From the NCBI GenBank assembly GCA_050084515.1, contig CM114271.1:34038001-34102000 (forward strand): a DNA stretch of 64,000 nt. Direction: 5' to 3'. This document shows positions 4,719 through 54,029 of the stretch, one piece after another. The notes beneath the pieces were generated by a model. It saw nothing but the letters and a program-made list of their open reading frames with translations, was not told the origin of the DNA and did not search any database. The position numbers and the translations under genes were made by a program. This DNA comes from Blasia pusilla. Taxonomy: Eukaryota. How positions within the stretch are numbered: position 1 is the stretch's first letter; every line of letters starts with the position of its first letter.

Positions 4719-4882
<164 letters not shown>

Positions 4883-10719: not shown

Positions 10720-12190
10720 GTGATTGAGCGGGTGAGACAGGGTTTGTCATCACGGCGTTCTTCCAGGGTTCCGAAGAACTGGGGTAGTGCAAGCAGTTGT
10801 GTGATACGGAGTGGAGTGAGGTACCGAGGGGTTACCAATGAGGAGCTATCACGACATCCATCCGTGGCTGGATCGTCATCACTAGACACTAGGTCTGGTG
10901 ACGAGATCACAGACAGAGACAGTAGTACTTGGCAGGAGATGGACGACATGGGCCATCGGGGCATGCGTCGTTTCTCGGGTGCAGTGGGCACCATCGACTT
11001 AGATGATTTTATCCAGGAGTTTGACACATGGAGCGACTTCCAGGAAATACGGACCTCGACAGGGTTCAACCCTTTCATGGCATGGAAGGGGTTGTTCCAG
11101 CACTTGGAGGGTCCTCCGATATATGACTACATGGAGTTTCGATCACTATATTCAGTAGAGATCGATGCCTGGAGGATGTATTGGGCTCCAGGGTATGTGT
11201 TCACTAGTGGTCGTAAGGCATATGATGGGATTGTGAGAGGAGAGAGACCCACACCATCAGCCCGGAGACTAGATGGAGAGGAGGGCAGTGAGATAGGCGA
11301 TGTGGCACAGATCTCTGGTGGTAGAGGGCCACCCAGCTTCAGCCCCACAGTGGAGTTCTTCCGACAGTTGGGGAAGAGCTACCAGGGCGTACGCACCGAC
11401 AAGCTGAAGAGTCTACAGGATTTTCAGCGACGATCGGGTGAGAGTCTAAGAGAGGCATTCAAACGCATGAGGAGGCTCATCATTGCTACGTTTGGAGTGA
11501 CTGAGGCGCAGTCTGTCTAGTATTGGTACGGGGTTCTGGACCGAGAACTACGGAGGAGAGTCCGAGATGCGGTGCTCATTCACACAGCAAAGCCCATATT
11601 GAAGGTGGTCTTTGAGTTGTCTGAGCGTATTGAGCTCAACATGAGTGAGGAGCAGATAGTGACCGCTGGATTTTCTCGCGAGTCGAGGGGTCCATGAGCG
11701 ACCGTGACCCCACAGGTGCCACAGCGAGCATCAGTACTACGGGAGCGGGCCAGTGTGCCTAAAGAGCAGGGCGGGTACCGTGAGCCTATCAGGCAACGAC
11801 CCGTACCTGCACATGTTGCCCAACAGGGACCGATGTGGTCTTGTTGGACGTGTGGAGGGGCCCATAGGCAAAGAGACTGCCCACAGCATGGGAGAGGACC
11901 ACCAACGCCTCCGATTGCTCAGGAGCCATAGAGGATGGCCCCACGACAGCACCATTGTGACCATTGCCACAGATATGGTCACACTAGGGATAGATGTTTT
12001 GACCGTCGCCGAGGGGCACGTCCAGAGGTAGGCCGAGGGCCTGGGGGCGGTCGTCCTGGAGGAGGTCGGGGAGTTCTTCCTGGACGTGGTGGTAGAGGAC
12101 CACCACCAGCCAGAGGAGATGGAGCATGAGCACCAGAGCTGGCACTTCTCTCATGCATTGATCAGTTGAAGCAGAGGATTGCAGCTTAGG
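10720..12190 (+). pseudogene. gag: gag of copy 1 with two zinc knuckles
   Basis: FSGAVGTIDLDDFIQEFDTW; FQRRSGESLREAFKRM (Gypsy gag QxxxESxxxY/F); CWTCGGAHRQRDC and CDHCHRYGHTRDRC; RGG-rich tail. Stops at 11518, 11695 and 11929. Confidence 0.85.
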
Positions 12191-12912
12191 GAAGGCACGG
12201 AGCTGTGAGCAGCTAGTGTGACTCCAGCTTCAACTTCTTACCCTCACCCGGGTGAGGATCTCGCCAGTATGGGATTTATGTGTAGTGCAGCCCAGGTTGA
12301 GGCAACTACAGTGATGACTCGGGGTGCTGCGAGAAGCATCGAGCCATCGAGAGGTGGAGTTGAGATTGATCGACCAGAGGGGACCGATGGGCGGCAGTCC
12401 AGGGTTCCACACTCGTTCACATTGTCGGAGGCACTACACACACCATCGATGGTGCCTCGACGACCGGCCGGTGCCTCGATTCAGCACCTACGTCGACGTC
12501 ACGAGGAGTTGGAGTGACAACTCCTATGCCGGCTTGAGTGGAGTCAGTGTCGACCATAGTGTTGGAGGTGGCCACCAGAGTGAGTCAGACTCTATTATTT
12601 TCCTTCATAGAGTTGGCGACGTTGGGAGTTGGACCAGCTGAGGTGTTCTAGTTGGCCGCCATGTTGTGTGAGCGTGGAGAGATGACTGCTTCTTGTTCAG
12701 AGGTAGTTGGGGAGGTGGTGGAATTTCCCTCAGAGCCGGTGCTGTGGACGTTCCCCACAGAGTCATGGCATGCGGCGGCGGCGAAGTTGGTAGATATGCC
12801 AGCTCGACCAGCCATAGAGCGAGCAGTGGTGACACCTGGAGTAGTGTTACTGGATAATTGAGCTGGAGTATTTCGTTTGGTTAGTCCGACAGGGACATTA
12901 TACCACCCGTAG

Positions 12913-13240
12913 CGCGTCCTACTTGATTCGGGAGCGCAACCCTTGATGTTAGGGAAGGCGGCGTGTTTAGCGTTGGGGTTATGGAAGGCCGACATTGAGC
13001 CTTGTCCCTTCCAGATACAGACCTCGATTGGGGCCGTATCACCCACTCAGTATATGACTCGACAGGAGATTATTGTCAGAGTCCAGCTAGAGCATACGAT
13101 GGATAGTGCTATGGTGCGCACACGTGTGATTACGACACGAGATGAGTCGTACGATGTGTTGTTGGGGAGTACAGTGTTATATCCCCTAGGATTCATCCTT
13201 GACTTCTGGGAGGAGACCGTTGCTTATCGGCCAGGATGGC
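12913..13240 (+). pseudogene. Aspartic protease of copy 1
   Basis: RVLLDSGAQPLMLG (DSG at 12925-12933) and YDVLLG. Confidence 0.85.
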
Positions 13241-13640
13241 GGTCAGGTGACGGCCGGATGAGTCGATTCTGCATGCGGTTGCGGGGCGAGGTAGTCGATC
13301 TCGAGACGAGTCTGTGACCACGTTGGCAGCTTTCACAGGTAGTGTTAGCTGGCCAGGAGAGTTGTTGGAGGGGAATGCACATGCGGAGGATGTCCCAGTA
13401 GCGGATAGTCCCACAGAGAGACAGGCCATGGCGGGTGTTTCTTCCCATGTTGGCGACGCCTCTTCACCATTGTGGGGTACGACTCGGGAGCTACAGAGGA
13501 GTGCCGACGACCTCGTGAGGCAGTCGTGGAGTCATGTTTTTGTCCCAGAGCAGCGAGAGTCACGTGGCAATCAGGCTCTTGGAGTGGAGACGTTGACCCC
13601 ACTGGATATCACTCCTGTTGTGTGGCAGTGCCCAGAGGAG

Positions 13641-14440
13641 GGTGTTAGGGTGTTAGATCTTTCCGGAGGGATTAGCATCGGATTGGCTGCACTATTGCAG
13701 GCGGGCATACGGGTGCATCAGTACCTTTATGTGGAGAGAGATGAGACTGCGCGGCGAGTATCATTACGTCACGTGGCGAGATTGGTCCAGAGGTATCCTG
13801 AGTTATTGCGGTATCTGCGATGACGGGGATATCAAAGATACGCTACCCGTCGACATCTCTTTGGTGGGGGCGCAGGATCTGGATAGAGTTGGCACCATTC
13901 ATTTGGTGATTGCTGGATGGCCATATTAGGGTCATTTATCAACTGGCCGAGGATTTGGATTGCAGGATCCGAGGCCAGGGATGTTTTGGGAGATGCTATG
14001 AGTATTACGACACTTGCAAGAGAGTCAGATATGTTCTCCAGCGTACATTTTGGAGAACGTGCCGTTGTTGGGAGACACTCGTGCACGTGTGATGACGAGT
14101 GTACATCAGGTGAGGTCTTGGTTGGGACCTGCTGTGTTGTTAGATGCAGCGAGAGTTGGGTCACGTGCCCATCGTCCATGACTGTGGTGGACAAACCTGA
14201 TACCATCAAAGGTACTGAGTCAGCATACAGTGGAGTCCAGAGAGCACCACATCTCACAGTGGATGCTATTTTGGGCTCAAAGCGTCGATCTCAAGTGGTG
14301 ACACGGGATGATAGATCACCGTTGGCCATGGCCAATAGGGTGGGGGAGTTGAGGGCAGCCTTACCTACGTTGGTGAGCCTCCCAGCATCCCATGCCTTTC
14401 GTCAGGGAGGGCCAGGCATGATTTGGGATGAGGTGACTAT
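13641..14440 (+). pseudogene. DNMT3-like C5 cytosine methyltransferase domain in pol of copy 1 (motifs I-VIII)
   Basis: VRVLDLSGGISIGL (motif I), YLYVERD (II), LPVDI (III), IHLVIAGWPY*G (IV, 13921-13929), GLQDPRPGMFWEML (V), YILENV (VI, 14053-14061), SRAHRP*LWWTNL (VIII). Motifs IX-X removed by a deletion. Confidence 0.9.
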
Positions 14441-14446
14441 ATTTGG

Positions 14447-14830
14447 GTTGGGTCTAGGAGCAGTGCTTACTCAAAGGGATGACGAGGAGAGGGAGTTCGT
14501 TGGGGCTTACGTGAGACGATCAAACAACATTGCAGAGGCGAAGTACAGCTCCTACGAGGGAGAGTGCTTGGCTGCAGTGTGGGCCGTGGCACATTTTAGG
14601 TGTTATTTATTCGGCAACCCTTTCACACTTATCATTGATCATGAGCCGTTGAGGTGGTTGATGGAGTCCGATAAGCTTACGGGCAAGCTTGCCAGGTGGG
14701 CTCTATTACTGCAGGAGTATGAGTTTGAGGTGGTTCATAGGCCAGGTCGGCTGAACCAGGATGCGGATGGGTTGAGTCGTAACCCATGTCCGAGTCAGAG
14801 AGACGACAAAGGAGCTCGATGGCACGGAGA
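14447..14830 (+). pseudogene. RNase H of copy 1 (N-terminally truncated)
   Basis: LGLGAVLTQ...KYSSYEGECLAAVWAVAHFRCYLFGNPFTLIIDHEPLRWL...LARWALLLQEYEFEVVHRPGRLNQDADGLSR. Confidence 0.92.
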
Positions 14831-15139
14831 GAGTGATGAGGAGATGGTGCTCGGTTGGCATGCATCTGCCTATCTTTGTTGGTTGACTATGGCAGGTCAA
14901 TCACAAGTGATGACTCTAGTGGTGGGGTTGGATGATGAGTCTTTGGATTCGGAGGTTAGTGAGGAGGCGACAAGTGGTCGTGATATCCATGACGACGTGG
15001 AGGTTGTGGAGTTCTTGCCTTTGGCGTCATTAAAGTATAGTGAGTGCTAGGGGAGCGGGATCGGATCCTACAGAGAGCCAAGAGGTTCAGGTGGGAGGGG
15101 ACTCACATTTTGCGGGTATGGGGAGATGGTAGGATAAGA

Positions 15140-16230
15140 GTGGTACCTCATCCTTCCCAGCGAGCACGTGTGGTGCGACATGCCCATGAGGAGTTGGGAC
15201 ATTTCGGAGTAAAGCGTACTTACAGCTTACTCCAGGTTCAGTATTGGTGGCGTGGCATGCATACTAGGGTACATTAGTTTGTGGCCAGATGTATGGTATG
15301 TGACAGAGTGCGAGCATCCTTCAATGCTCCCACTCTGCAGTTACATCCTTTGCCGATTATGGGTTTATGTTATTGGTGGAGTTTAGACTTTGCGGGACCT
15401 TTGCCATTGACAGGACGTCATCATAGGTACGTGTTGGTCATGGTGGAGCATTTCTTCAAGTGGATAGAGTTGGTGGCACTACTAGACAAGGCGAGCGAGG
15501 GAACAGCTTATGCGCTTCTAGATCGTGTGCTTAGTCACTTTGGTGCACCGGCGGAGGTGTTGACTGACCAGGGTACCGAGTTCAGGGGAGAGTTTCAGAC
15601 CTTGTGTGATCAGGCACTGATAGATCACCGCATCACGTCCAGAGATCATCCTGAGGCGGATGGGTTGGCGGAGAGAGTGGTACAGACGGTGAAGAGAGGA
15701 TTGCCCAAGTATGGCTTGCAGTGGGGACAGTTGAGGGAGTGGGACCTACAGTTGCCATGGTTGGCTATGGGTTATCGCTTTAGTCGGCAGGCATCCTTGG
15801 CGTCATTTTCATCGTACTTTTTGCTCTTTGGGAGAGAGCCAGATTTACTTGCAGCGATTCGACGTGACATGGCGGAGGTGTTAGATCTTGATGATCCAGA
15901 TGTGTAGGTACAAGCATGTTCTCAAAGGGCATAAGTTTTTGGTAGAGTTATGCCTATGGCCTTTGAGAACTTAGCTATTGCCCAACATAAAGATACATTG
16001 AGGTATGCGACCATTCGTGGAGGAGGTTATCGTCCAGGGATTAGGAGGTTTCATCCTGGAGATTACGTATATTTATAGCAGACGGCATCCACGACGCTAG
16101 ATATCACTGCAGGGCGCACGATCCTACGTCTGCGCGAATTATTACCGACCGGAGTCCTCGTGTTGGAGGGACAGGATGGTATGGTTTGGAAGGATCATGT
16201 GCGCAATTGTGCGCCATGTCGTCTTCCGAA
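15140..16230 (+). pseudogene. Integrase of copy 1
   Basis: HHCC motif (HEELGHFG...CMVC) and DDE core (SLDFAGP, VLTDQGTEF, DGLAERVVQTVK). Confidence 0.92.
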
Positions 16231-16282: not shown

Positions 16283-16417
16283 TGTATGTTGTGCGGATCT
16301 ACGAGGGGTGCAGCCACCATGTTGGTATGTGATGGTTGTTTTTGAGGGTGGCATATGTCATGTCTGACCCCCCCTCTTGATGTGGTTCCCACGGGACGAT
16401 GGATGTGTCTGAGATGT
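16283..16417 (+). pseudogene. PHD finger at the pol C-terminus of copy 1
   Basis: CMLC...MLVCDGCF*GWHMSCLTPPLDVVPTGRWMCLRC is a C4HC3 motif with the conserved W; one TGA. Confidence 0.9.
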
Positions 16418-16490: not shown

Positions 16491-16501
16491 AGGGGGGCGA
16501 T
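16491..16501 (+). promoter_or_regulatory. Polypurine tract of copy 1
   Basis: AGGGGGGCGAT immediately before TG; copy 2 has AGGGGGACGAT in the same position. Confidence 0.75.
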
Positions 16502-17254
16502 TGTGTGATCTCCATGTATATGTATGAGTTGATTTTTGTACATGTGTGGATCAAACCGTGTGTGGGGAAGATCGGTGTTGTGTGGTGTAGATGTGACCAG
16601 CGATGTATGTTGTGTAGCGATATGTATGCGCACGACAGTTGTCACATCTGAGTAGCTGATAGGCCGAGATCTATCGTGGATAGGGTGTAGGAGCCAGCGG
16701 ACTATCTTGAGTGTAACTTTGTCCCACGGTGTCGGATGAGGTTCAAGATAGGTCCATTGTATCAGGAACGTCGTTTCTGACAACTTTCATGTTGAGGTCT
16801 TTTACAACCGGGTGACTTGTTGACCAGGTTACCCGCCCCTGTTAACCTGTGCGCGCAGGTTACCAAGGGGAGGGCTATTTTTAGGGAAAGAGCCTTTTGG
16901 CTCTTCCCAACCCTATATAAGAGAGGAAGATGGCTTTCCTAAGCCATCTTTCTCATGTTGGGCCGTTAGAGCACCTCCCTTGTATGTGTGTGAACTAGGA
17001 CTAGGGTGCTAGCATCCGGATTCCTTGATAGCACAGGGTGGACGAGGCTCGATATGCCGATGTAGATTGAGGAGTGGAGTTTTAGGCCGGGTGTGCCGTT
17101 TTTACTACTCTATTTTTGTTGTGTGATCTCCATGTATATGTATGAGTTGATTTTTGTACATGTATGGATCGACCCGTGTGTGGGGAAGATCCGTGTTGTG
17201 TGGTGTAGATGTGACCACGGTGTATGTTGTGTAGCGATATGTTTGCGCACGACA
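16502..17254 (+). repeat. 3' LTR of copy 1 with a ~136-bp terminal direct repeat and TATA box
   Basis: Starts TG after the PPT and ends GCGCACGACA. 16501-16637 is repeated at 17119-17254. TATATAA at 16914-16920. Confidence 0.75.
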
Positions 17255-17519
17255 AACTTCATACAAAGGGAATATACCATATGGTGCCACATCACACTCT
17301 TAAAGGAATATCCACTTGTGAACTACAATCTCATATAAAAGAAAGGTTGATTTACATACGTGGATCATTATCTAACCCGACATCACCTTCTCGTCGGTCT
17401 CACCATGCCACCACGCTCTAGTGGCATAAATATGGCTCATGTATGGGTTATAACTCATCATGTCAATATCTTGGTTCAGATGTTCTAGATGATGGATAAC
17501 TTAAAAAATGTACTCCTAA

Positions 17520-17880
17520 AAAAAGTTGACTATCTAACAAGCTTCAATGTAAGCTAATGACATTCCATCACTCATCTCAGTGGTTGATGATTAGTGATGA
17601 TTGTGAGGGGATTCTCGAACAAATAACATTAAAAATTGGCCGCTACCCACATTGCAACTCAACACTTCCCCTCATATCAATTATACTTTATCTCCTCAAT
17701 ATTGTTTGAAGGACGTGGATATGCCCCTACAAACTCCTTCCCCTCATTATCTCTTTGAGTGAGCTTCGATACTATATCCAAAATACTCCGTTCCATACGT
17801 ACTTGAAATGGACGACCACGCATACGTCTCTTCATAATAGGCAAGGATGTTAACTTGTCTTTTAGCTCATGAAATAGTCT
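17520..17880 (-). mobile_element. Older Gypsy RT-linker/RNase H fragment related to the same family
   Basis: LKDKLTSLPIMKRRMRGRPFQV...LTQRDNEGKEFVGAY..SNN..KYN*YEGKC...CYLFENPLTIITNHQPL, homologous to copy 2 LKDRLTSVPILRRPIRGRPF. Confidence 0.8.
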
Positions 17881-18189: not shown

Positions 18190-20390
18190 TGAAGATAGAT
18201 GGATACAACTTAAGGTGGATCATGGGTTGTAATTATCGGAATGTTAGATATGAAGAAAGGAAAATGGAAGATTCTCAAGAGTTTGATATAGTAATTATTT
18301 ATGCACTTGGTATTGATCAGTAATATGAGAAGGTTAAAAACCAGTGATACATGTGTAGGGAGGACATTAGATCCATCAAAGGTGAAGGATATGGAGAGTT
18401 TTGTATTGAAGTCACCACATATATCATTTGGGAAGGAGACATAATTTTTGATGACCAAGAGGGATCTTACTTGGAAAATCATCAGATTTTTTGTAAGGAA
18501 AGGAGACAAGAAAATTAGTGGCCAAGAGTGATTCACATCAATCTTTCATAGAGAACCATCAGGTTTGCTCAATCTATGAAAAGATATACCATAATCGTTT
18601 GCCAACAAGAATATCAAGGTATCTTGGACATGGAACCCAAGGGTGTTGTGTGTGGAAGAGACATATGTAGGAATAAAAATGAAATATCCAGAGAGTTATG
18701 TATATAGGATGGATGTTGAACGAAAGAGACAAAAAAATAAACCTTTTAGATTAGACTATCTAGAGGGACTTTACATATACAAGTCACTAGATGTAGCCAT
18801 AAAATCATAGATTCCACATTATGGGGAAGATTAAAACTTATTATATGCAATATTTGGGCATACTTGGGCTACAAAAATCCCATGAAACATATCTGTGAGC
18901 TGAAGAGGTGTGTGTGACCATGCTAGAGGAAGAACATAACTAAGATATGCCATGTAAGTTCTATAATTGGAGAAGCAATTGGAATCAAACGCACGTGATT
19001 ATGGATGTAGTTCAAATAAATTTGTGCCTTTTCTTGGCTTATGTAATAGACATAATATAAGAAAGCAAATAAATTGAGTTTTTTTAGAAAATATCTTTGA
19101 TGTGCTTTTGCATAATATTCCAAAATAATTACATTACAAAATTGTCTCAATGTTGTTCAATATAACCATTTTATAATGTTCCATGCCAATATTGTATTAC
19201 ATAGAAAAACTAGATAGACGGGGACTCCCTACTAGGAGACTTGCTATGTATTATGATATATTTGAAGGTATTTTTTATGTACTTTTGCAAAATATTCCAA
19301 AACCATTATGCAAAAAAACTTTCTCAATGTTGTTCAATATTGGAATTGTATTATATTCCGCGCCAATATTGTATTCAATAGAGAATCCGAACATATGGGG
19401 GACTCCGTACTTGGAGACTTGCTACGCACTGTGAGTAGTGAAGGTCTAAGACTTGAATAAGTTGTTATTAGATAATTTTATCATAGGAAGAAGATAAAAC
19501 ATGTATGATATGTACTCCTTTTACATAATTTTTTTGCAATCGTATGGATGATTACATTAGATTGACGAGTTCGTATCCATTAAATATATAGAAAAAGGTG
19601 CTACATAATACTAGGGTTTATAGCTAAGAACACTCAAGACAACCAATGCTCCACAATCATTTCATCATGGTTCAAGATGATATTTCTTGTTCATAGAGAA
19701 GACAAAGTAGAGGAACTCCATCATTTTCAGAGGATGATATGCCACATCCATATTCACCTTGTGTGTAGAGGCATCGATTGTTCTAGTCTCCTCTAAATAA
19801 TGTAGTTATATTGACCGTCCAAACAAGATTGACATGTAGAATATGCCCTATTAACATTGAGAAATGTGAAGCACGCATCCAAGAAGAAGTTGTCAAAATT
19901 CTTGGTAGAATTCCAATTGCAAATAACATAAAGCTTGAGAGTGTTGCTTATAACGATGGTATTTTCCCCTTCTTCAAACACTGTATTGATGAATTTATTA
20001 CGAATTTAAAGAGGTAGGCAAGATTACATCTGGGTCCAGAGGGATCCTTTGTAGCTCCCATTTTAGGAGGTTTGATAATCTGCTACGTATGTGTATAGGT
20101 CAGACTTTCCTTTCGTACATGGCATATTGTGAGGAAAGGCCACTTACTAGGTAACTTGTGGAGTATTTAAGAACCTTGATGGTTGTTGATCACATTTAGT
20201 TTAATAGGATTAAACGAGATGTGTCACTAGTGAGGATGTTCCCTTTTGTGAGACCTTTCCTTTAGATAAATACTCTCGGTTCATATGGAGAGGACCTTAT
20301 GTTATAGTTTGTGAGGTTGAGTACATTATGTACTAGAAGTCCTTTATTACTTATTGCAAATGGTAAGATGTGCATAAATATTACGAGTGA
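18190..20390 (+). mobile_element. Highly decayed Gypsy pol remnant (different family)
   Basis: Protease-like YIILGR (~18420), RT-like KLESVAYNDGIFPFFKHCIDE (~19930) and integrase-tail WRGPYVI (~20286), in Gypsy order. Confidence 0.45.
19112..19425. repeat. Two-copy degenerate tandem repeat (~180-bp period)
   Basis: TCTCAATGTTGTTCAATAT...GCCAATATTGTATT...GGGGACTCC...GGAGACTTGCTA occurs twice. Confidence 0.75.
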
Positions 20391-24207: not shown

Positions 24208-27200
24208 ATGGTTGCCTCTGAAAATATTATACCTCTCTCCCCTCAGTGGCTCTTTTCAAAGCCTGCAGAAAGCAAACAACCCATCACCAGTGCGGTATAT
24301 TATCTTTAGAGTTCTTGTTGGTGGATTGCCTACATTGTCATTGTCTTCCATGACTTGGAATTGATGCAATAAGCGCTCGTTTGCACGCTTGAAGACTTTC
24401 AGTTGAACAAGGAGGCTGCTGAGTGCAGATGGATTCTGTTTCTCTTATACTTCAAGAGTTTTACTTCATACTCGTTTGCAGCTGGGTGACTTTTAGTGTT
24501 GTGCACTTTGGCCTGGCTAAGCCCCTGATGCTATCTTTACAGGAACCAGCCCGGACACCGGGGACTCCAAGTCATGGGGGAGGAAACAGTGATGCTGTGA
24601 TTAAAGAGCGTTGGCGGGGGGATGTTGGCCGTGGTGACGGGGGTCGTGATGTGGGGCGTGACAGTGTTCGAGAAGGAGGTCGTGGAGACGGTGGTCGTGA
24701 TGGTAGCCGAGATGGAGCCAGGGATGCTGAGAGGAAAAGAGATTGGTGGAGGTCCATCTCCTTGGAACGTGATGCGGACAGCAGTCGGCGTGATCGCTGG
24801 CGAGAGGAGGAGAGGGAGAACAGCACAGCTGCTCGGAGAGACCGCTGGAAGGATGGTGAGAGGGAAACTGCAGAAGCTCGGCGAGGGGAGAGGTGGGCTG
24901 AAACTAATGTTGGAAGAGATGCAACTGATCTCCGCCGCCTTCCTTCGGACAGGTGGACTGATTCTACCAACAGAGAAACGAGTTTTGAAGCTCGGCGGGA
25001 CAGCAAGTGGAGCACTCGATGGGGTCCTGATGATAAAGAGAAGGAATTCCGAAGGGAGAAGTGGGCAGAACCAGAGAAAGAAGGAGAGGGTCTCCCTCGA
25101 GAGAGACATACTCCCACTCACACTCCAACTCCCATCAATAGCAGAGAAGGTGAGAGGGAGTCAGACACAGCCACCAGAGACAGGGCTTGGCGTCCTCATT
25201 CTTTCATGAGTCGGGGCAGGGGAGAGACTCCACCTCCAGGGGCTGCTCCGCCCAAGTTTGCACCTGGTTTTGGTGTGGGCAGGGGAAGAGGAGATGGTCC
25301 TAGTGTTGGATTTGCTGCTGGACGTGGACGAGCCAACTTTTCAGGAAGTGGCCTCCTCCATGGCCCTCCTGCTGGACCCCCAATCGGTGCACCACCTGTC
25401 CCAGATAAATGGGATGGTAGTCAAGGAAAAGCTGGTGCCCTGCAAGACAATTTGTTTCGATATTCCCGCGCGAAGTTGCTGGACGTTTATAGGAAGGTTG
25501 GAAGCTCAGCAACTTTTGCGAGATATCCAGAAGGCTTCACTGAAGTCCCCCAACTGACTCAAGCCGATATCTTGGAGCCACTTGCTTTCTTCCCTCCGGA
25601 TATGGAAGAGGAGGTCGTGTCTCATCTCTTGCTTTGCTTTCCCATATGTCCAATGTTTTCCCGTTTGTTTGTTTGTGGTCACAATGGCTGAATTTCAAGC
25701 ATGATGAGCTCAGACACACCTCATCTGCTAGTGGTGAATCTCAGTTGTATATCTTCAAATTTTGAAGTCATACTTTGTTCCAATCGATTTTCTGCTCAGG
25801 TTATTCTTGAAGGTATACGAAAAGGAGAAATAGTAAGTAGTGGAGCAGTCCACAATTCAGTAGGGAAGGAGGCCGCTCTTGGGAGGATCCGAGAAGATCC
25901 AGCAAGAGGTCGTGGACGAGGTCGGGGAATAGGTACCCACTAGAACTCTTATGTTCTTTTTCAATGCTCCAAGATCAGTTTTCATGAGTGGGTGTATTGG
26001 ATGTATTAATCAATGATCATACTGAAGGGTTGAGCTATAGCAAGGTCTCATATGTATTTAGCTGCGTTTCTTCCTACAAAGGTACTTGTGGGGCGGGAGA
26101 TATCAGCTACCCTAAAGTTCAATTTTGGTGTTTAGAATGTGCCTCTAGGTGAATGTAGAGTGAGAAATCCAGATGAAAAGTTCAGTTGAAACGTCAATTC
26201 TTGAACATATTCTACCTGACCTCATGAATTGATTTCTTTTCAGTAGGTAAGGAAGATGGTCTTTTCGATAGTCATCGAGAGGATGACTTCTTCGATGCTC
26301 CTGGATTTGGGGATGTCCGCGGTGGTGATGGTGGTGTCTTCGACAAACTTGCTGAGGCTAGATATGCAGACGCAGAAGGCGGCGATACTTGGGAACCTCA
26401 CTCTCGAACTGAAAGTATTCAGGATATGGAAGGTATTGGAAGGTCCATTTTTTTTACATGTGATGCACCTGGTGATTTTGAACTGCTTATCTGATTGCAC
26501 TGACATCAGTACAAACCTTGTTTTTGGGAGCCCCGAGCCTGGTTCAAACTTGGGTAATTTGAGAGCATGAGGGTGTTTTATTATTGTGCCATATAGCAAT
26601 GTATCAATGCTGCATGTCTCAGGTGGGAGAGATGAAGGAGGTTGGAGAAGAGGACGAAGTGGAGAAGATGGAGCTGGTGGCTTTGGGAGGGAAGAATCTG
26701 GTTGGCGACAGCGAAGTGATGGAGCTTGGAGGAGAGGAAGAAATGGTGATGAAGCACCTGGTGCTTCTAAGGAGGATAAAAACTGGAGAAATGAACGTGG
26801 TGTTGCCCAGGAGGAGCACAATTGGCGGCCCAGCAGATCTGAGGAAGATGCCTTCAAAGAGGAGTTCAGTAGTCGACCTGACAGGGGTTCTGGTCAAGAG
26901 AAGGAGAAGCTGCAGGGTCACTTTGAAGACGAAAGCCCAAACTCTGTTACAGGGGAGAGACGCTGGCACTCGGAGAGTATTGTCTATCAGCGAAGCTCTG
27001 AATATGACAAAGGTGATGAGCAATTTTCGCATGGTATGTCCTTAGTAGGGAACACTGGTGCAAGACCTGTTCAGTTTCTGGGAAGCTCGGATAGAGATAT
27101 TCCAAGGTTGAACTCTCGTCATGTATCACCAGAAGATATGTCACTGTACTACACGGATCCACAAGGTGAAATGCAGGGGCCTTTCCTTGGATTGGATATT

Positions 27201-30200
27201 ATTGGGTGGTTTGAAGCTGGTTTCTTTGGTGTGGATCTACCTGTGCGTCTTGCTGATGCTCCAGAAGGCTCTCCATTTACTTCCTTGGGTAATCTGATGC
27301 CACATTTGAAGCCGAAGGCCAGAGTGCCTCCAGGATTTGATGCTCTGAAGCAGGTGGAAGAACAAGCTGAGGCTGTGTCAAAGATTGAGGTGGATGCCTT
27401 ATCGGTAAATTTTTCTCGGCATGCAAGCCTATCATCATCTGGGATGGAAACTGGAATGATAGAGACAAAAGAGTTCCAAGGTAAAGCTCCCCTGCCGAAG
27501 ATGGAAATCATGAACAGTGTTGTGGATGCATGTGACGATGGTTCTCTGTCTGGAGACACACGATCCAGTCGGGAAGAACAGTTAAGGAATCATTCCTTGA
27601 CACTCAAGAAGGTAAGAAATGCTCTGGTACATATGAGTTGTTTGTGGCTCCATGAACTTCTGGTAGTGTTATGCATGTGACGCTGGAGTGACTGAGGAAT
27701 GCTGCTCTTTTGGGTTTTGGTTTTGACTGTGGAGAGTGATTCCTGTTTCTTTTGGCAGATATACCAGTGGACAGGCTTTTTGGCCATAGGGATGGACCAG
27801 GGATTGAGAGGACTTATTCAATGAGGCGTCGGATGCCTGCTTTTCCTCGAGTGGAATCTGAAGAACTGGAGTCTGTGAGACATCCTTCTCCAAGTCTTTT
27901 CTCACAGTGGCCCGGGCAAGATGGTGAACCCTCGACTTCAGGAAGTGCCGAGGCTTCAATGTCAATGCCCAACCACCCGTCCTTCAGAGTTGCACCATCA
28001 TCCAACCATCATCCAGTCTCTAGGTCTGCAGACTTAATGCCAATGATGCAAGGAGCCACCAGCCATGTACCTCTTGGACCTCAGCCTGAGCGCGCTTGGC
28101 CTGACCTCATGCGTTCTCTCTCAGATGCACCATCTCCTCATCACAACCTTCCACAGGGTGCGGGTGTTGACCATTCACATATTCACCCCCTGGAGATGCA
28201 ACATCTACAACGTTTGGTTTGATGCAGCCCGGGGGACTTCCATCCATCCAGCGACAACTCTCACAACCTTCCCCTCTTCCTCTAAGTCAGCAATTGCCAC
28301 CAGGGGGGCCTGCTCTAGAACAACTTCTTCGTCCTGGTCTCTCACGAGACCTGCAAACATTGAATATGCTACAGCAGCAGCAACATCAGCAACAGGCTCA
28401 GCAACCCCCTTTACCTATTCCTCCCTCAGGCCCTGTCTTGGATCAGCTTTTGAGACTTCAACAGCAGCAACAGCAGCAATTGCCACCTCAGGTCTTGTTG
28501 GAGCAGCTTTTGAGGCAACACCAGCAGAATCACTTTGATCACATGCATCGGCAGGCTGCAGGGGCTCCAGTTGATCAACTTCTCATGCGGCAAACTCATG
28601 AGCTGGCACAACCCCCACAACATCCTCTAGGCCCCCGTGGTGCAGGATTTGATCAGATGTATCAAGCAAGGCATCAGCCTGCACCAGCAATTGAACAACT
28701 TCTGCGGCACCGCCAACAGCAAGAACAACAACAGGTATATTGGTCTAGCGTCCCATTTTCATGGCCTTCACATGTTGCTCTGTTGCTATGTCAAAGCTTC
28801 CTCGGGAGGTGTAGGTTCAGGATGAAACACCCTGAATGTTCTGTTAGTCCAAGCTGTGGAAAGAGGTAGTAGAGTATAATTGAAGTATGTTGATACTCCC
28901 CTGGTTCCTGTCTTGGTGTTTTAGCTCAACCAGTTCTCACTGTGATTTTCTCAATCATGACAGCAAGATGCCTTCAGACACACTTCGGTTGTTGTTTGTG
29001 TACCCATAAGTGCTTCTGTTTCGCAGTTGCTACTTCTGTGAAGCAAGGATTCTTAGGTGATTCCTAATGGTCACCTCTCACTATGAACTCACACTTTGTC
29101 TCAATGTAATCTGTAACTCATCGGACTCTGTTTTTTGCTCTGTTTCACTGTCAGTTCTGTTTTCATTGAGTGGCACCAGGATTATTCTTACAGTTCAATT
29201 GCATCTTGAATTCTTCTTTTCTAGGACCTGATCCTTTTTCTCCGTCAACTGGAAGATACTTCTGGCCACATTCACAAGTATGTTCCTTTCAAGTGTGTCT
29301 GCTGTTCCAAACCCATTGCACGGGGGTTATCACTATTCCGCTTTCCTATGTAGGTTACATACAAAGCAACGGTTTACAGCCACATGGCATGCCTCCATAT
29401 TCATTGGGCGAATCATTCAGTTGTGGATTTTGAACTTCACTCCTTTCACTCCACCGCATCTTCTTTCAAAAGACTTAGTCTGCTGGTTTGTTGAATTGGT
29501 TGATCAGAAATCACCAATGTTGTGGGGCTGTCTGTTTATTCAGTCACTTTCTTGAGGAGAAGATGACAAGTTTAGTTTTGAGACCAAAGTTGGTTCAGTA
29601 CTTTTCTCCTTTTTTTGGTGATGTGTTGATGTACAACACCAAACACTGCTGGAAAAATGCGAGGAGGTTCTGGATCTATTAGGGTGGTAATGATATCAAT
29701 TCTGCAATTCTATCTTTTCAACTTCTGGCTTACGAAGCATTTCTCATTTGTCATCCCTCTTTCAAACTCATGACGGGCATGGAGTGTGTAGAGGAGTGTA
29801 GGTATTCCTTGCAAATGGGGGTTGTTGAATCTGTACTTTAATCATAATGGAACTTTTCCTCCTTAGTGTTCTGGTTTTGTGTAATCTCCTTCCTGTTTGG
29901 TATGTGTTGAAGCTGAACTCACCTTCTCACGTGTTGGTTTCCATCGTGTGAAGTTACTAACTAATCGTCATCTTTCCTGAGCTTCATTTTCATGGTTTGA
30001 CATTATTTGTGGAACTCACTCCAATTGAAATTACCGGTCCTTCTAAGGCTTTCCGAACATCTGGATGCTGGAAGTTCTCTGCATTAGTTTCTTGCTGTTA
30101 ATTTGTTGTGCCAATGGATTAAGCTCTACTAGGAGGCTTGAAAAGAAACTACCATCCCTCTGACCTTAAGAATGGTTTTACCTTCCAGGTAAGGCAATTT

Positions 30201-33200
30201 GGCCTTTCACAGGCACAAAGACCTGGTGTAGATGAGATGCGAATTTCTGGCGTCTGGGAAGTGGATGAATTTGGCCATTTCGTGCGGACTCAAGCTCAAC
30301 CTCCTCTGAGGCCATTCGATACTTTGAAGTCACAACCACAGCAAACTCAGCAGCAGCAGCAACAACAACAACACCATATGCCGAGCTCCTTGGGCATGTT
30401 GCAAGGTTCCATGCAACATCCTCAAGTTCAAGGTCCTCCTCAGCCAGAAAGCCAAGGAGTTTTTGGATATGAGTCTGCCACAAGTGTGAGAGGTCCGCCT
30501 AGTTTGTTTGACCCTAATTTGGCAAGAATTGAGAGGAATTTGTCAACTTTGGGGGGGTCTCAAAGAAAGGACACTGGAGTTGCTGCTGAATTAGTGGCAC
30601 AGCTTCAAGAGCAAAGAGCAAGAATTGAGAGGGCGACTAGTATCTCATTTTCTGAGTCCTCTAGGCCGTACTCTTTAGGCTTCCAGTCACAATCTCAGGA
30701 TAGACAATCTGATGCTGGATCTCTAGGTTGGACAGTACCTGCAAGCAGCTCATCAACAGATTCTGATTCACCAGCAAAGGTAACTGAGTGCCATTCAGGT
30801 CAGCAGGATGATGTGCCCAGTGTTGATGGACATCAATCTCAGCTGGAAGGACTTGGCTGGCAATTTGAACCAGACTCCCTTTCGGAAACTTCTACCTACC
30901 TTGAAAAGGGCAAAGAGAGTAGCAGCTTGCCTGGTCATTCCAAAACTTTTGGAGGGCAAGCTTGGAATGATTCTCCTGATCTCGTGCGTCAGGAGCAGCC
31001 CAGCCCAGGGCTTCCTGATTCAAATCTTGACTCCACAGTTCCTCAGGCTAAAGCCAGTACTTTATCAGTAGGTATTGTCTCTGATCAGCAGCTAACAACT
31101 GATAGTTGGTCCTCAGTCCACGAAACTGATCTTTCACCTCAAAACTCTGTGCCAGACATGACCCAGATGCCCAGTCACCCAGTTTGGAAGCCTGCTGTTG
31201 TGCCAAAGCCAAAGTCCTTAATGGAAATCCAACAAGAGGAAGCAGAGAGGAGAATCGCGGAGGAGAAGGCTGCATCAGAAGTGGCTGCACAAATAGGCCC
31301 CTTGAGTAACACTGGAAGTTCTACTAACTCTGGACCCTGGGCTGCCTCTGCAGCTATGCCCCAGACAAGGTCACTAAGAGAGATTCAGGAAGAGGAGGGC
31401 CGCAGAGCTGCCGCTCTTGGTCATTCTGGTTCGACGACTTTTGCCCCTCCTCTCACTTCTAGTGGTAAGGGCGAAGCTTCTTGGACACTGGCATCTCAAT
31501 CGTCAAGTGGTGAAAAGTCAAACTTGCGTGATGTGATTGCAGAAGAGGTGCAATTGATTGCCCCCAGTAAGAAGGGTGGGGAAGCTCCTACTTCTAATGT
31601 TTTGAGTCGACAGGTGTCTGCACCTGTGCCCGTGCCCGTGCCTGCACCTATGGCTGCTGTAACACCACCTCAGGCCTCTCCAACATTTGATGACTCTGAT
31701 TTTGTGGAGCCCAAAGAATCCAAGAAGAACAAGAAACGGGCCTCTAAAGCAAAGGGTGCTGTAAGCAAGGCGGCTCCTACTTCCACTCCAGAGCCTGTGC
31801 AGATCTCACCATCAGCATCCTCCAAGAACCCCGGAGCCCGACAGACTCAACATGATATAAGCAAAGAGGTTCTACCTGCTCCTCCAGTACCCTCTTTGGC
31901 AGATTTTCTGCAGCTGAAGGAAGAAGTGACAGCCTCTCAGCCTTTACCTGCTTGGTCAGTGGATCTAAGCAAGCAAGCAAAGTCTGCCAAATCCTTGAAG
32001 GAAATTCAAGAAGCGGAAAGGCGAGCAAGAGAGGAGCAGGAAAGGCAGTTCCGGGCTGAAGTGGTGCAAGTTTCTGCTCCTGTCAAGCCTATAATAGCTC
32101 ACATGCCTAGTGGATCAGGTGCATCTGCCTGGCAGCGCCCTTCTGTGTCCCCATCTCCACAAACTTCGAGTGCTGTCCAATCCAGCTTTGCAGCATCTGT
32201 AGCTGCTCCACCGTTGGCTTCAGCCAATAGCAGTTCTCGATCAAAAACAGGTTTCTATGAAGATGATGATGAGTTGTTTTGGGATTACAGTGAAGATGTG
32301 ACTCTTAAGATTGGTGCTGTCAAGCAAGCAACGAATTCTGAACGGTAGGACCAAACTAGCACTGTCCATTTTCCAAAGAGTCTTCAAAATTGTGGGAGTG
32401 ATTGAGACGAGAAGTTTTTTAAATAATTTATTGTGCAAGCATAGAGCACTCGAATGTTCTCCGTTCTAGTTGTTTCTAGAGAATGGGTGTGTGACCAGTG
32501 ACTGCCTGAGTTATGTGTTTGTAGCCAGTCTTACACTTACCCAGTGCTTCACTTGGTATGGTGCAGGCCAGAATTTCCGTCGCTGATTGCAATTGGGAAA
32601 GGAACAGCTGCTAAAATCCCGGTGGTTAAAGTTCCTGGCTCAGCAGCACCAACATCAGCACCTGTATCTGCTGCTCCTTCAACAGTACCAGTCTCTGCCT
32701 TTCGACAGGCAACTACCGGGGTGGCCTCTCCTCGTGTTAGCCCTATGGAGTTCCCTACTTTATCTGCTACTTTAAGTACAGTTGGTAAGGCAGTGGTTGT
32801 AAAACCCAAGAAGCAGCAGCATCCCAACATGCGAGCCAATGAAGGTGCATCCTTGAGTCAATCCTGTGTAGTGGCCTGACCTTGCTAGGGTAGTGGGTGT
32901 ATTGGCTCTGGAACATCTGTTAATATCTTGTCAGTGGATGTATTTCAACTCCTTTTTTGTTTAGATGCGGCGCCTAAAGTATGCTTGCACACAGCCCAAT
33001 TCTTGCCAAACAGGCCTTTGTCGATCTGAAGGATAAGGTGCCTCTGTGGTCAGAAATGCATATGGTAGTACATAACTAGCTGGAATTTTTGTGATGAACT
33101 GTTGTCTCTCTGAGCCAATTATTTGTGGCTATTGCAGACCTAGCAGCAACTTCTGTGCAGTATGCAGCCATGTCAACTACGGAAGGGAAAGCATTTAGGC

Positions 33201-33883
33201 AGTGGTGTGAACAGCACATCAAGAAGCTCACAGGGAATGATGGTACGTGATTTTAACTTGGGAACACCAGTGGAAGGGATATAAGGCTGCATGTGGTAAG
33301 GAAGGTTTCTAATGATAGTTCAGAATTCAATACTGTTGTCATTGGGAGCATCCTGATTCCAGGGATGAGTTATCAGATATTTAGATGCCATCCGGATGCA
33401 ATTGATTGAAATCACCATATTCCTGTAGTCAAATTCTGATGGTTGAAATTGGGTGCATCAGACATGACACTCTTGGACTTCTGCATTTCACTCCCATCAC
33501 TTGCAGAAGCTGGAGAGTATCTCACACAGTATCTTGGTTCGAGCCCCAACGTCCAAAGCTTCAAAGCTGAGTTTCTACGACGCAAGGAAATGGTGCCAAA
33601 TGAAGTAATTCGGACAGTTTTCCCTGTAAGTGATGCAGTCATCAGAGATGAATCTTCCAGCAAAAGCAATGGGAAGAAGGGAGACATGAAAAGCAAACTT
33701 GTTGCGCCAGTTAGAGATGTAAAAGAAGAAGATTATGGATTAACAGATGCAGATGGAAATAATAGCAAGGCGGGTAAGAAGAAAGGGAAAAAGGGAAAAA
33801 AGGTAGTTGATCCTTCTCTGTTGGGGTTTAGTGTCACAAGTAATCGGATCATGATGGGTGAGATTCAGCATATAGAGGATTAG
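24208..33883 (+). CDS. GYF-domain protein, EXA1/GIGYF-like (eIF4E-family-binding translational regulator)
   Basis: Exons inferred from GT/AG and phase: 24206-24294 (IPLSPQWL), 24543-25613 ([10 protein letters not shown]), 25800-25932, 26244-26432, 26623-27611 ([15 protein letters not shown]...WFEAGFF), 27759-28734, 30189-32344 ([24 protein letters not shown]), 32567-32844, 33138-33242 (FRQWCE), 33462-33883 ([21 protein letters not shown]). The true start may lie upstream (possible exon 23844-23909). Two apparent 1-bp frameshifts. Confidence 0.9.

Positions 33884-51227: not shown

Positions 51228-51283
<56 letters not shown>
51228..51283. repeat. (GA)n microsatellite, ~28 units
   Basis: Perfect GA run. 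Confidence 0.99.
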
Positions 51284-51773: not shown

Positions 51774-52225
51774 TGTCGTGCGCATACACATCGCTACACA
51801 ACATACATCGTTGTCACCGAACACACACACAGACATGCACGATCCCATGCTAACTCATGGCATCCAAACAATGAGACAAGAAGTACTAAAATATCTCCAA
51901 TAAAATAAGATCTAATCTATCTCACAACACCATAGTTCTCACATGTGTGCACTCTTACATGTCTCTCTCAATGTCAAACCAAACCCACTCTCCTAATGAG
52001 AGGCTTGGGTTACACACACAAGGCAAGCAAGACCATAACTCCTCCGCCTCATGCCAAGAGGTTCAACAAAGAGAGAATGAGCTCTCAAGCTCTCTCTCCT
52101 TGAGGTATATCCCTCCCCTCTCCCAAACTCTCTCCATGGTAACCGAACACACACACCAACACGCACGATCCCATGCTAACTCATGGCATCCAAACAACGA
52201 GACAAGAAGTACTAAAATATCTCCA
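51774..52225 (-). repeat. 3' LTR of copy 2 with an internal 86-bp direct repeat
   Basis: TG after the PPT; ends GCGCACGACA like copy 1. 52142-52227 is repeated at 51816-51901. Confidence 0.75.
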
Positions 52226-52419
52226 ATCGTCCCCCTAATTGGTGGTTATGTCCCCCTAACTCCAGATAGCCCTTTATCCCTACCTACCACGACATACATT
52301 TCTATGACGCTAAGAGCATAAAGGCCAGGTGCTCATGTGGCCCCATCGTTAGTCGCCTTCCTGTCATCCATGTCATAAAAAAAGTCGAAATCGAAACCTA
52401 CCTAGTATCTCCTCTATGT

Positions 52420-52550
52420 ACATTTGGGACACATCCATCCCGAGGAACCCTAGTGAGAGGTGGCGTCAGACATGCCATATGCCAACCTCTCGAACATCCA
52501 TCACAGACTAGCATCGTGGCCGTACCACGAGCAAAATCACACAACATACA
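52420..52550 (-). pseudogene. PHD finger of copy 2
   Basis: CMLCDFARGTATMLVCDGCSRGWHMACLTPPLTRVPR, then after a frameshift GWMCPKC. Confidence 0.9.
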
Positions 52551-53720: not shown

Positions 53721-54029
53721 TACTGTGCGTTCCTCCCAAACCCTCAAAACATGTGTCCCCTCCCAACGGAACCATCTGGCCCACTGTAGGATCCGATCCA
53801 ACTCTCTAGCACCCACTGTGCTCGCGACGCTGCCAGTACGAAGGTACTCCAAGACTACTACATCATCATGAATATCTCGGCCACTTGTCGTCTTCTCACT
53901 GACCTCGGGATGCAAGGACTCTCCGCTAGACCTCGCCATCAAAGTCTCCACACTCTGGCTCTCCATATCCAACATGCCTAAATAGGCTGACGAGTGTCAT
54001 CTTGGCATTGACTCCTCATCACTCTCTCC

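Follow-up and report, generated by a model that had tools for sequence, protein, structure and literature searches.

The window analysed here is a 64,000 nt stretch of the liverwort Blasia pusilla genome (assembly GCA_050084515.1, contig CM114271.1, positions 34,038,001 to 34,102,000 of the forward strand). It contains two retrotransposon copies, copy 1 at approximately 10.9–17.3 kb on the forward strand and copy 2 at approximately 60.6–51.8 kb on the reverse strand. The order of their Pfam domains, reverse transcriptase (RT), RNase H and integrase core (rve), is of the Ty3/gypsy type. Both copies carry a C5 cytosine methyltransferase (MTase) domain of about 300 codons between the positions of the protease and the RT. 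They share 67–73% DNA identity, and both are dead, with stop codons, frameshifts and one deletion apiece. The features of copy 1 are as follows.

10936–12033, + strand: gag, interrupted by stops, with two Cys-His knuckles (CWTCGGAHRQRDC and CDHCHRYGHTRDRC)
12847–13299, + strand: aspartic protease region (LLDSGAQ...), homologous to relatives with PF13650/PF13975
13641–14438, + strand: DNMT3-like MTase, motifs I to VIII and the target-recognition part
14448–15032, + strand: RNase H (PF17917, E = 2.5e-26; tblastn match to residues 1008–1157 of relative P0165)
15053–16018, + strand: integrase, zinc-binding part and rve core (PF00665, E = 1.6e-11 on 15278–15904)
16283–16417, + strand: PHD finger 3′ of the integrase (PF00628, E = 1.2e-9, 38.5 bits, cut-off 24), with one internal stop
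16501–16637, + strand: 3′ direct repeat B1, identical to B2 at 130 of 137 positions
17119–17254, + strand: 3′ direct repeat B2, the partner of B1

Residues 1–757 of the Marchantia protein P0162 match copy 1 at 10939–13281 (tblastn). Pfam recovers no zf-CCHC domain in the copy 1 gag, in which the Cys-His knuckles were identified by eye. The protease piece of copy 1 likewise has no Pfam match, and since no window piece matches a Pfam protease, this region was placed by homology to relatives that have a Pfam aspartyl-protease domain. The MTase is broken into three frame pieces by two frameshifts and has four in-frame stops. Its first piece begins at 13641 (GVRVLDLSGGISIGL...YVERDE), its middle piece spans 13834–14217 (DISLVG...VIAGWPY*G...MFWEML*...ILENVP...SRAHRP*LWWTNL), and its last piece, 14223–14438, ends in GGPGMIWDE. 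A deletion has removed motifs IX–X and the entire RT, such that the MTase passes directly into RNase H at approximately 14438/14448. Copy 2 reads in the opposite direction and retains the following features, listed from its 5′-end.

60472–60552, − strand: 5′ repeat A1, identical to A2 (51914–51994) at 76 of 81 positions, in a split-direct-repeat layout
57698–58767, − strand: gag (tblastn with relatives, and translation)
56907–57359, − strand: protease region (tblastn with relatives, and translation)
55768–56700, − strand: DNMT3-like MTase, motifs IV to X in a single frame with one TAG (56431–56433)
54674–55501, − strand: RT (PF00078, E = 1.1e-28 on 54677–55189), in a different frame from the MTase (frames −2 and −1)
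53826–54407, − strand: RNase H (tblastn with relatives)
52813–53804, − strand: integrase (translation)
52443–52550, − strand: PHD finger 3′ of the integrase (PF00628, E = 2.3e-7, 31.2 bits), its C-terminal end decayed
51813–52227, − strand: 3′ repeat block with B1 (52227–52139), A2 (51994–51914) and B2 (51901–51813)

The copy 2 MTase contains the motifs DISLLG, VIAGWPYQG, LFWEML, ILENVP, AHRPRLWWTNL, ERERAMGFP and RRHALGQ; motifs I–III have been lost by deletion. Its repeats are arranged as A1...B1-A2-B2, with B1 and B2 identical at 84 of 89 positions. In copy 1, an A1/A2 pair was looked for and not found, leaving only B1/B2; searches for flanking long terminal repeats were negative for both copies. 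A first-pass annotation, made from the letters alone, had reported an extra MTase domain after the protease in both copies, and tblastn with relatives, Pfam, the PDB search and Foldseek all bear this out. The motifs it listed are all present as described, but the set is divided between the copies by the two deletions, copy 2 being without I–III and copy 1 without IX–X. Its placement of an RT behind the MTase holds for copy 2; in copy 1 the RT is deleted.

The domain is a C5 MTase of the DNMT3 type as judged by its ranking against PDB chains and its predicted fold. PF00145 matches the copy 2 read-through at 32.2 bits (cut-off 22, E = 1e-7), and the MTases of relatives match the same profile at E = 1e-15 to 5e-4. 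The central piece of copy 1 alone reaches only 13 bits, under the cut-off. A separate protein-domain search again returned PF00145. With phmmer, the copy 2 read-through (P0001) has 1477 matches at E ≤ 1e-3 and 103 at E ≤ 1e-30 among 1.84 billion representative proteins; against the PDB it matches DNMT3A at E = 2.2e-7 and M.HhaI at 0.8. A profile of 35 family members ranks DNMT3A (1.5e-30), DNMT3B (8.4e-28) and DNMT3C (9.9e-28) ahead of DRM (1.4e-16 and 6.6e-13), M.HhaI (7e-10) and DNMT2 (approximately 1e-6). The profile has 57 PDB matches at E ≤ 1, and none of these chains is named as a DNMT1 or a chromomethylase. The profile matches DNMT3A in three colinear stretches (I, IV–VIII and IX–X), and the motif order is therefore not circularly permuted. 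An AlphaFold2 model of the copy 2 MTase has a pLDDT of 92.2, and all 31 Foldseek matches listed for it are DNMT3A, DNMT3B or DNMT3C (E = 2.1e-13 to 1.2e-9, TM 0.50–0.65). The earlier assignment to a DNMT3-like enzyme with an unpermuted motif order is thus upheld by the profile, the colinear stretches and Foldseek, and the C5-MTase structure match that it called for was found at a best E of 2.1e-13.

Cellular DNMT3A, DNMT3B and DNMT3C share the fold and motif order of the window family's catalytic domain. The family differs from them in having no PWWP or ADD in its polypeptide and in being part of a retrotransposon. DRM, whose motifs are circularly permuted, scores far more weakly against the family profile than DNMT3A does. 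The PHD finger in the same element as the MTase recalls the ADD domain of DNMT3, a histone-reading zinc finger. An enzyme that acts on RNA as DNMT2 does, methylating the element's genomic RNA or its tRNA primer instead of DNA, would be a very improbable reading. DNMT2/tRNA methyltransferase chains do occur among the PDB matches, and RNA methylation has been raised for a LINE-borne DNMT (de Mendoza et al., 2018; PMC5890265), but the E-value of DNMT2 trails those of DNMT3A/B/C by about 24 orders of magnitude, and the listed Foldseek matches are without exception of the DNMT3 type.

The position of the domain is fixed. Among 196 proteins bearing the domain, 35 have the order protease-MTase or MTase-RT (layout A), 70 have RNase H-MTase-integrase (layout B), and 91 consist of the MTase alone. 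The 35 layout A relatives come from liverworts, mosses, charophytes and metagenome sources. In a list of 35 relatives traced to their source records, 14 are Marchantia gene models, giving at least 14 in Marchantia polymorpha. In the MTase tree, a split with a support of 99 separates the layouts completely, with 54 rows on one side (31 A, 0 B) and 88 on the other (65 B, 0 A); the same split has a support of 97 in a 53-row IQ-TREE analysis. A fragment of a host DNMT3 pseudogene lying by chance in or beside a gypsy element would not recur in this way. The domain occupies the same place in two copies that are only 67–73% identical and in 35 independent relatives, and its frame is continuous with that of the protease in both copy 1 and Marchantia. 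A chance neighbourhood of this sort is ruled out by the constancy of the MTase position across copies, relatives and tree. The suggestion that the MTase was part of the polyprotein stands in so far as the domain lies in the element's own frame. In many relatives, however, it forms the end of an upstream gag-protease-MTase frame and is not enclosed in one continuous pol.

The IQ-TREE analysis groups copies 1 and 2 with Marchantia, Calypogeia and Sphagnum sequences in a clade of 14 rows (support 100). Moss sequences are nested among those of liverworts, for which horizontal transfer is one possible cause. The Klebsormidium nitens protein GAQ93235.1 (P0071 in the relatives list, one Klebsormidium protein) has zf-CCHC, Asp protease and DNA_methylase domains in that order. 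Its MTase, 30–35% identical to those of the window, falls together with the bryophyte clade in the A/B split (supports of 99 and 97). From its species, its layout and the text of the paper, GAQ93235.1 presumably corresponds to KnitGypsy-Dnmt3, a DNMT-bearing element described from K. nitens together with others from Symbiodinium (de Mendoza et al., 2018; Nat Commun 9:1341; PMC5890265). The first-pass annotation had cited that study correctly, and its remark that no such element was known from a land plant agrees with the literature searched, in which no land-plant retrotransposon with a DNMT3 is described. The consulted portions of PMC11982613, PMC12344493, PMC6453930, PMC5784723, PMC11244446, bioRxiv 10.1101/2021.02.12.428880 and bioRxiv 10.64898/2026.05.21.726589 contain no land-plant report.

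As described by de Mendoza et al. (2018), KnitGypsy-Dnmt3 resembles the window family in that it belongs to the Gypsy type and encodes within its polyprotein a DNMT3-type MTase whose motifs are not permuted. The legend of Figure 4c of that paper gives it DIRS-like repeats with Gypsy domains; in the window, copy 2 has the A1...B1-A2-B2 arrangement and copy 1 only the B1/B2 pair. Its MTase domain is under purifying selection with a Ka/Ks below 0.2, compared with a dN/dS of 0.15 in the window family. The differences are that its host is a charophyte alga and that of the window family a liverwort, a land plant, and that the window copies are dead and have Tyr at the catalytic Cys. In the window family, a PHD finger follows the integrase. 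Because GAQ93235.1 has the CCHC-protease-MTase layout and the same tree placement, and because intact bryophyte relatives exist, we read the window family as the bryophyte branch of the KnitGypsy-Dnmt3 kind and not as a new kind. The window family has the position of the domain and the MTase clade in common with the Klebsormidium element, and probably the layout of the repeats as well, which suggests that the bryophyte family is not an independent invention. The Klebsormidium and bryophyte domains may nevertheless be separate captures from a similar host gene. De Mendoza et al. placed the capture ‘in the K. nitens lineage’ (PMC5890265). In the tree of the family's MTase domains, those of Klebsormidium and the bryophytes share ancestry. 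The data point to one lineage that spans Klebsormidium, Closterium, mosses (Sphagnum) and liverworts (Marchantia, Calypogeia and Blasia pusilla). On this evidence, the two window copies are best interpreted as long-dead members of two old sub-lineages of one retrotransposon family, the bryophyte branch of a Gypsy-DNMT3 lineage (probability roughly 0.85). The intact layout of the family is very probably gag with Cys-His knuckles, aspartic protease, DNMT3-type MTase, RT, RNase H, integrase and PHD finger, with split direct repeats.

The other side of the well-supported split is occupied by a sister clade of chlorophyte elements, annotated as ‘pol’ in Scenedesmus and as ‘hypothetical protein’ in Haematococcus and Chromochloris. 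They share with the window family the MTase family (36–38% identity), the Gypsy RT/RNase H/integrase set and a C-terminal PHD finger. Their order is RT-RNase H-MTase-integrase-PHD, with the MTase between RNase H and integrase, whereas in the window family it lies between protease and RT. No published description of these elements was found in the literature searched. These two insertion places, beside the protease and between RNase H and integrase, are also those at which retroviral polyproteins carry dUTPase, an accessory enzyme of nucleic-acid metabolism; enzyme and function are unrelated, and the likeness is one of analogy alone. The Symbiodinium elements SymbioDIRS-Dnmt3 and SymbioLINE-Dnmt are also retrotransposons that encode a C5 MTase. 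By their description, they are set apart as members of other classes (DIRS with a tyrosine recombinase, and LINE) in another host lineage, and in the view of the authors they represent independent captures (PMC5890265). In viral contigs, the 80 loci retained out of 200 confirmed matches to the family alignment are all distant phage and giant-virus MTases, which match over short stretches at 23–47% identity and E-values of 5e-12 to 9e-7.

Between copies 1 and 2, the MTase core has a dN/dS of 0.15 (bootstrap range 0.08–0.26, 194 codons), a rough value because synonymous sites are saturated (pS approximately 0.70), although pN is still clearly far below pS. The values for gag, protease, RNase H and integrase are 0.09–0.17. 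The MTase domain has thus evolved under purifying selection. Two RNA-seq runs labelled as the same species contained 5763 and 5687 reads that matched the family at 80% likeness or more. On the assumption that the libraries were stranded, these reads show a strong bias towards the sense strand, and the MTase bins have a depth of 39–65. Most of them are only 80–95% alike to the window copies and therefore stem from other copies. Transcripts of the family occur in this species, whose DNA runs contained 129065 and 21505 matching contig pieces. The PHD finger after the integrase, the split direct repeats, the purifying selection on the MTase, the sense-strand transcripts and the chlorophyte sister clade are new here.

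The window's two copies have no remaining function. Both keep the ENV of motif VI, and in both the motif IV Cys is replaced by Tyr, encoded by TAT (56518–56520 in copy 2). Of 141 relatives, 136 have the catalytic Cys and the other five are gapped at this position; 140 have the Glu of ENV. The catalytic Pro-Cys and Glu-Asn-Val residues are accordingly retained in the family and incomplete in the window copies. It is conceivable, if rather unlikely, that the copies derive from a pseudo-enzyme sub-lineage, in which the Cys-to-Tyr change and a remodelled catalytic loop arose before they diverged and the fold was kept under purifying selection. Such a protein could have bound DNA or chromatin without catalysis, or partnered or blocked a host DNMT3, in the manner of DNMT3L and DRM3. 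TAT occurs in both copies, and none of the 136 ungapped relatives is substituted at this codon. Among the 83 columns that are invariant in 16 bryophyte relatives, two are changed in both copies where 0.7 would be expected, and both lie in the catalytic loop with the same residue in each copy. The loop columns of copy 1 are changed in 3 of 6 cases compared with 10 of 96 elsewhere (p = 0.026), while the remainder of the domain diverged under purifying selection.

Against this, the reading draws on two decayed copies only, and a single G-to-A transition, the type of decay seen most often in methylated repeats, is enough to turn TGT into TAT. Because it needs only this one common change, the Cys-to-Tyr substitution could have arisen twice. 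The Ser common to both copies is encoded by unrelated codons, TCA in copy 1 and AGT in copy 2, which argues for coincidence. The excess of columns changed in both copies is not significant (p = 0.15), nor is the loop enrichment in copy 2 (p = 0.22). The window copies are not resolved as sisters in the tree, and each is 61–69% identical to Cys-bearing Marchantia and Calypogeia sequences compared with 57% to the other copy. Intact Cys-bearing relatives are found in Marchantia, Calypogeia and Sphagnum; a metagenome scan with the VIAGWPYQG pattern found no intact Tyr-bearing relative. The sole match to the back-translated pattern, a soil contig, is bacterial-looking and offers no MTase context, and was discarded as a chance match.

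For the family as a bryophyte branch of the Gypsy-DNMT3 lineage, a mechanism can be proposed tentatively, at somewhat less than even odds. The MTase would be translated as the tail of a Gag-protease precursor, enter the particle with it and be freed by the protease. It would then methylate de novo the element's new double-stranded cDNA, or the fresh insertion, and under this proposal the new copy would arrive carrying the host's mark. The PHD finger that follows the integrase might read histone H3 tails and so influence the choice of target chromatin. In yeast, SymbioDIRS-Dnmt3 carried out de novo CG methylation, and the Klebsormidium domain gave no methylation, a result that its authors deem inconclusive (PMC5890265). 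The enzyme might instead act in trans on host DNA or rival transposons, shaping local chromatin or silencing competitors, which we consider improbable. It has been discussed that retrotransposon DNMTs might act on the host genome by accident (PMC5890265), and the family is both very abundant and transcribed. The sequence, however, contains no pointer to trans activity, and a location at the end of the Gag-protease precursor would favour packaging with the particle.

Retrotransposons bearing an enzyme of the kind normally used to silence them have so far been known from one charophyte alga and from dinoflagellates, and the bryophyte elements bring the question into land plants. Transcribed retrotransposons that encode both a writer (DNMT3) and a reader (PHD) of chromatin marks may be present in bryophytes, Marchantia among them; the PHD finger places a histone reader in the same element as the MTase. 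The spread over Klebsormidium, Closterium, Sphagnum and three liverwort lineages, together with the chlorophyte sister clade, suggests an old and successful strategy. M. polymorpha, with its gene models of this family, is a model plant amenable to genetics and well equipped for methylome work. The Marchantia, Calypogeia and Sphagnum relatives are annotated merely as ‘hypothetical protein’, their MTase unrecognised, and counts of DNMT3 genes in bryophytes must set transposon copies apart from host genes.

Copies 1 and 2 belong to one Ty3/gypsy-type retrotransposon family and lie in opposite orientation, with only 67–73% DNA identity between them; both are dead. The DNMT3-type domain has a fixed place in the element and is conserved, under selection, co-encoded with a PHD finger and transcribed. 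The parts of the two copies are as follows.

Features of the two element copies, in element order
Copy 1
10936–12033 (+), gag
12847–13299 (+), protease
13641–14438 (+), methyltransferase-like stretch
14448–15032 (+), RNase H, directly 3′ of the methyltransferase stretch
15053–16018 (+), integrase
16283–16417 (+), PHD finger (PF00628, E 1.2e-9)
Copy 2
60552–60472 (−), A1, first segment of the split direct repeats
58767–57698 (−), gag
57359–56907 (−), protease
56700–55768 (−), methyltransferase
55501–54674 (−), reverse transcriptase (RT)
54407–53826 (−), RNase H
53804–52813 (−), integrase
52550–52443 (−), PHD finger (PF00628, E 2.3e-7)
52227–52139 (−), B1, following A1 among the repeats
51994–51914 (−), A2 (76/81 identical to A1)
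51901–51813 (−), B2 (84/89 identical to B1)

Pfam confirmed the pol domains RT (E 1.1e-28), RNase H (E 2.5e-26) and integrase core (E 1.6e-11). The methyltransferase (MTase) of copy 1 is spread over three frames with four in-frame stops, and one deletion took motifs IX–X together with the entire RT; that of copy 2 has lost motifs I–III by deletion and contains one stop. The motif IV catalytic cysteine is replaced by tyrosine in both copies, with the codon TAT in each. The elements have a GC content of 50–55%, versus 31–45% in background where no coding sequence was found. The PHD finger downstream of the integrase is common to both copies and to chlorophyte relatives, and places a histone reader beside a DNA methylation writer within a single element. 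Just past copy 1, the opposite strand carries another gypsy RNase H, the third, as a short fragment (17375–17880, −) 38–47% identical to residues 975–1140 of Marchantia P0165.

The first-pass annotation had described a C5-MTase resembling DNMT3, with motifs in canonical order rather than permuted as in DRM. When both copies were translated, every motif claimed was found in that order, and the PF00145 profile matched the copy 2 read-through (its single TAG entered as X) at 32.2 bits, against a cut-off of 22 (E 1e-7). Among all PDB sequences, the same read-through matched DNMT3A best (E 2.2e-7), then DNMT3B and DNMT3C, and bacterial M.HhaI appeared only near E 0.8. A profile built on 35 family members, which ranks more sharply than a single sequence, gave DNMT3A (E 1.5e-30), DNMT3B (8.4e-28), DNMT3C (9.9e-28), DRM (1.4e-16 and 6.6e-13), M.HhaI (7e-10) and DNMT2 (about 1e-6). 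Three colinear stretches were matched to DNMT3A by this profile, and the domain is therefore not permuted in the DRM manner. AlphaFold2 modelled the copy 2 domain with high confidence (pLDDT 92.2), and all 31 Foldseek matches listed for it are DNMT3A, 3B or 3C (best E 2.1e-13; TM about 0.57–0.65). The proposed likeness to DNMT3 thus held in both rankings, and the domain is a predicted DNMT3-type MTase, assigned by PDB ranking and modelled fold.

A search with the domain against 1.84 billion representative proteins returned 1477 matches at E ≤ 1e-3, 103 of them at E ≤ 1e-30. The close relatives with names (48–65% identity), among 35 rows, comprise 14 Marchantia polymorpha gene models, one Calypogeia fissa and two Sphagnum sequences, and the motif WPCQG is present in all five bryophyte sequences read at full length. 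Two domain orders occur among the 196 domain-bearing proteins: protease-MTase or MTase-RT, as in the window (class A, 35 proteins), and RNase H-MTase-integrase(-PHD) (class B, 70 proteins), with the MTase standing alone in the other 91. The FastTree phylogeny of the MTase separates these classes completely (support 99), for of the 54 rows on one side 31 are class A and none class B, and of the 88 on the other 65 are class B and none class A; the split had a support of 97 in an IQ-TREE analysis of 53 hand-picked rows (41 from the class A side, 10 class B and the two window copies). Named class A members come from bryophytes, Closterium and Klebsormidium, and named class B members from the chlorophytes Scenedesmus, Haematococcus and Chromochloris. 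The proteins P0017, P0027, P0029, P0032, P0150 and P0257 are among the members of the class B sister clade, in which a PHD finger accompanies an MTase placed between RNase H and integrase; no description of this clade was found in the literature searched. Copies 1 and 2 fall within a 14-row bryophyte clade (support 100, IQ-TREE), and the tree does not fix their positions within it. The Sphagnum MTases P0183 and P0187 are 74% identical to Marchantia P0162 (Calypogeia P0159 and Marchantia share 77%) and are nested among liverwort sequences with weak support, a closeness that could reflect either very slow evolution or moss-liverwort transfer.

The Klebsormidium nitens protein in the MTase tree, P0071 (GAQ93235.1), carries a zinc knuckle followed by an aspartic protease and the MTase, the order of the window element, and joins the class A side in both FastTree and IQ-TREE, as the window copies do; its identity to bryophyte MTase domains is only 30–35%. 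The repeats of copy 2 are arranged A1...B1-A2-B2, which is the layout of PAT/Ngaro-type DIRS elements. In copy 1, B1 and B2 are 130/137 identical, and a search for an A1/A2 pair found none. The Klebsormidium retrotransposon mentioned in the first-pass annotation is KnitGypsy-Dnmt3, described by de Mendoza et al. (2018; PMC5890265) as an intron-less DNMT3-related domain within a Gypsy Pol frame, with DIRS-like repeats and Ka/Ks below 0.2; the authors hold that the domain was captured “in the K. nitens lineage.” Judged from the wording of the figure legend, its repeats would fit the split direct repeats of copy 2 (PMC5890265). Domain order in P0071, tree side and the copy 2 repeat layout together tie the window family to KnitGypsy-Dnmt3. 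The annotation knew of no land-plant description, and the literature searched full-text likewise held no report of Gypsy-DNMT3 elements in land plants, though supplements may hold more; in the available text of two later papers, “streptophytes” are mentioned only through citation of the 2018 work. The window family is a land-plant member of an already described kind of element. What it adds to that kind is a PHD finger, the arrangement of reading frames, a sister clade in chlorophytes and possibly a sub-lineage with a dead enzyme.

Synonymous sites are saturated between copies 1 and 2 (pS about 0.70), and at that saturation dN/dS is 0.15 for the MTase core (bootstrap 0.08–0.26, 194 codons), 0.17 for gag, 0.09 for protease, 0.13 for RNase H and 0.10 for integrase. 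Because non-synonymous differences are far rarer than synonymous ones, most of the divergence dates from before either lineage went inactive, while the domain was still of use to the element. The catalytic cysteine is present in 136 of 141 near-complete relatives (the remaining five are gapped, with no substitutions) and the ENV glutamate in 140.

Against this background, the tyrosine in both window copies, where every relative with that column has cysteine, could mean that a loss of catalysis was shared by the two and selected, which is unlikely, if well short of negligible. Sixteen bryophyte relatives agree without exception at 83 columns that both copies retain; copy 1 departs from them at 6 of these and copy 2 at 10. 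The columns altered in both copies number two, versus 0.7 expected (p 0.15), and these lie in the catalytic loop with the same replacements, Cys→Tyr and Arg→Ser. Loop columns are enriched for change in copy 1 (3/6 vs. 10/96 elsewhere, p 0.026), but not significantly in copy 2 (2/6 vs. 14/101, p 0.22). The shared serines, however, come from unrelated codons (TCA in copy 1, AGT in copy 2), Cys to Tyr needs only one transition, and the tree does not group the copies as sisters. By identity, each is nearer to Cys-bearing Marchantia and Calypogeia domains (61–69%) than to the other (57%).

Sequencing runs with the same species label were mapped to copy 2 at a likeness of at least 80%. From two DNA runs, 129065 and 21505 contig pieces aligned, which shows that the family is abundant. 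A pair of RNA-seq runs contributed 5763 and 5687 reads, nearly all only 80–95% alike and therefore derived from other family copies, with a depth of 39–65 over the MTase bins. In every bin the first mate was commoner on the + strand than on the −, by a factor that varied between bins from about 5 to >100; this means sense-strand element RNA provided that the libraries were stranded in the usual way. An RNA joint at 54311/55385 (copy 2, −; 14 and 23 reads in the two runs) skips 1073 bases holding RT and is absent from the DNA contigs; with aaag on both sides, it resembles a transcribed deletion derivative lacking RT rather than a splice.

Among class A proteins complete on the C-terminal side of the domain, 33 of 50 end within 160 residues of the MTase, some of these ends being contig ends, and the MTase and RT of copy 2 are in different frames. 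In many members the MTase therefore probably, if tentatively, ends an upstream gag-protease-MTase frame; a few, e.g., P0022, have a single continuous frame. The MTase would then be made together with Gag-protease, packaged and freed by the protease, and could act on newly made cDNA of the element or on a recent insertion, as the 2018 study proposed for DIRS elements (PMC5890265). The PHD-integrase would choose the chromatin. When the 2018 study assayed the Klebsormidium domain in yeast, the methylation test came out negative, a result that its authors called inconclusive. Enzyme activity has so far been demonstrated for no Gypsy-DNMT3.

Other features lie outside the elements.
4722–4880 and 51228–51283, long (GA)n/(TC)n microsatellites
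19073–19400, short tandem duplication (151 nt, 74% identity)
24423–33883 (+), multi-exon GYF-domain host gene
40809–41028, short tandem duplication (110 nt, 82% identity)

That the host is a liverwort, though none of the species compared, follows from one 741-codon exon of the GYF gene (30123–32345), which shares 66–67% identity with Riccia proteins and 62% with a Calypogeia protein.
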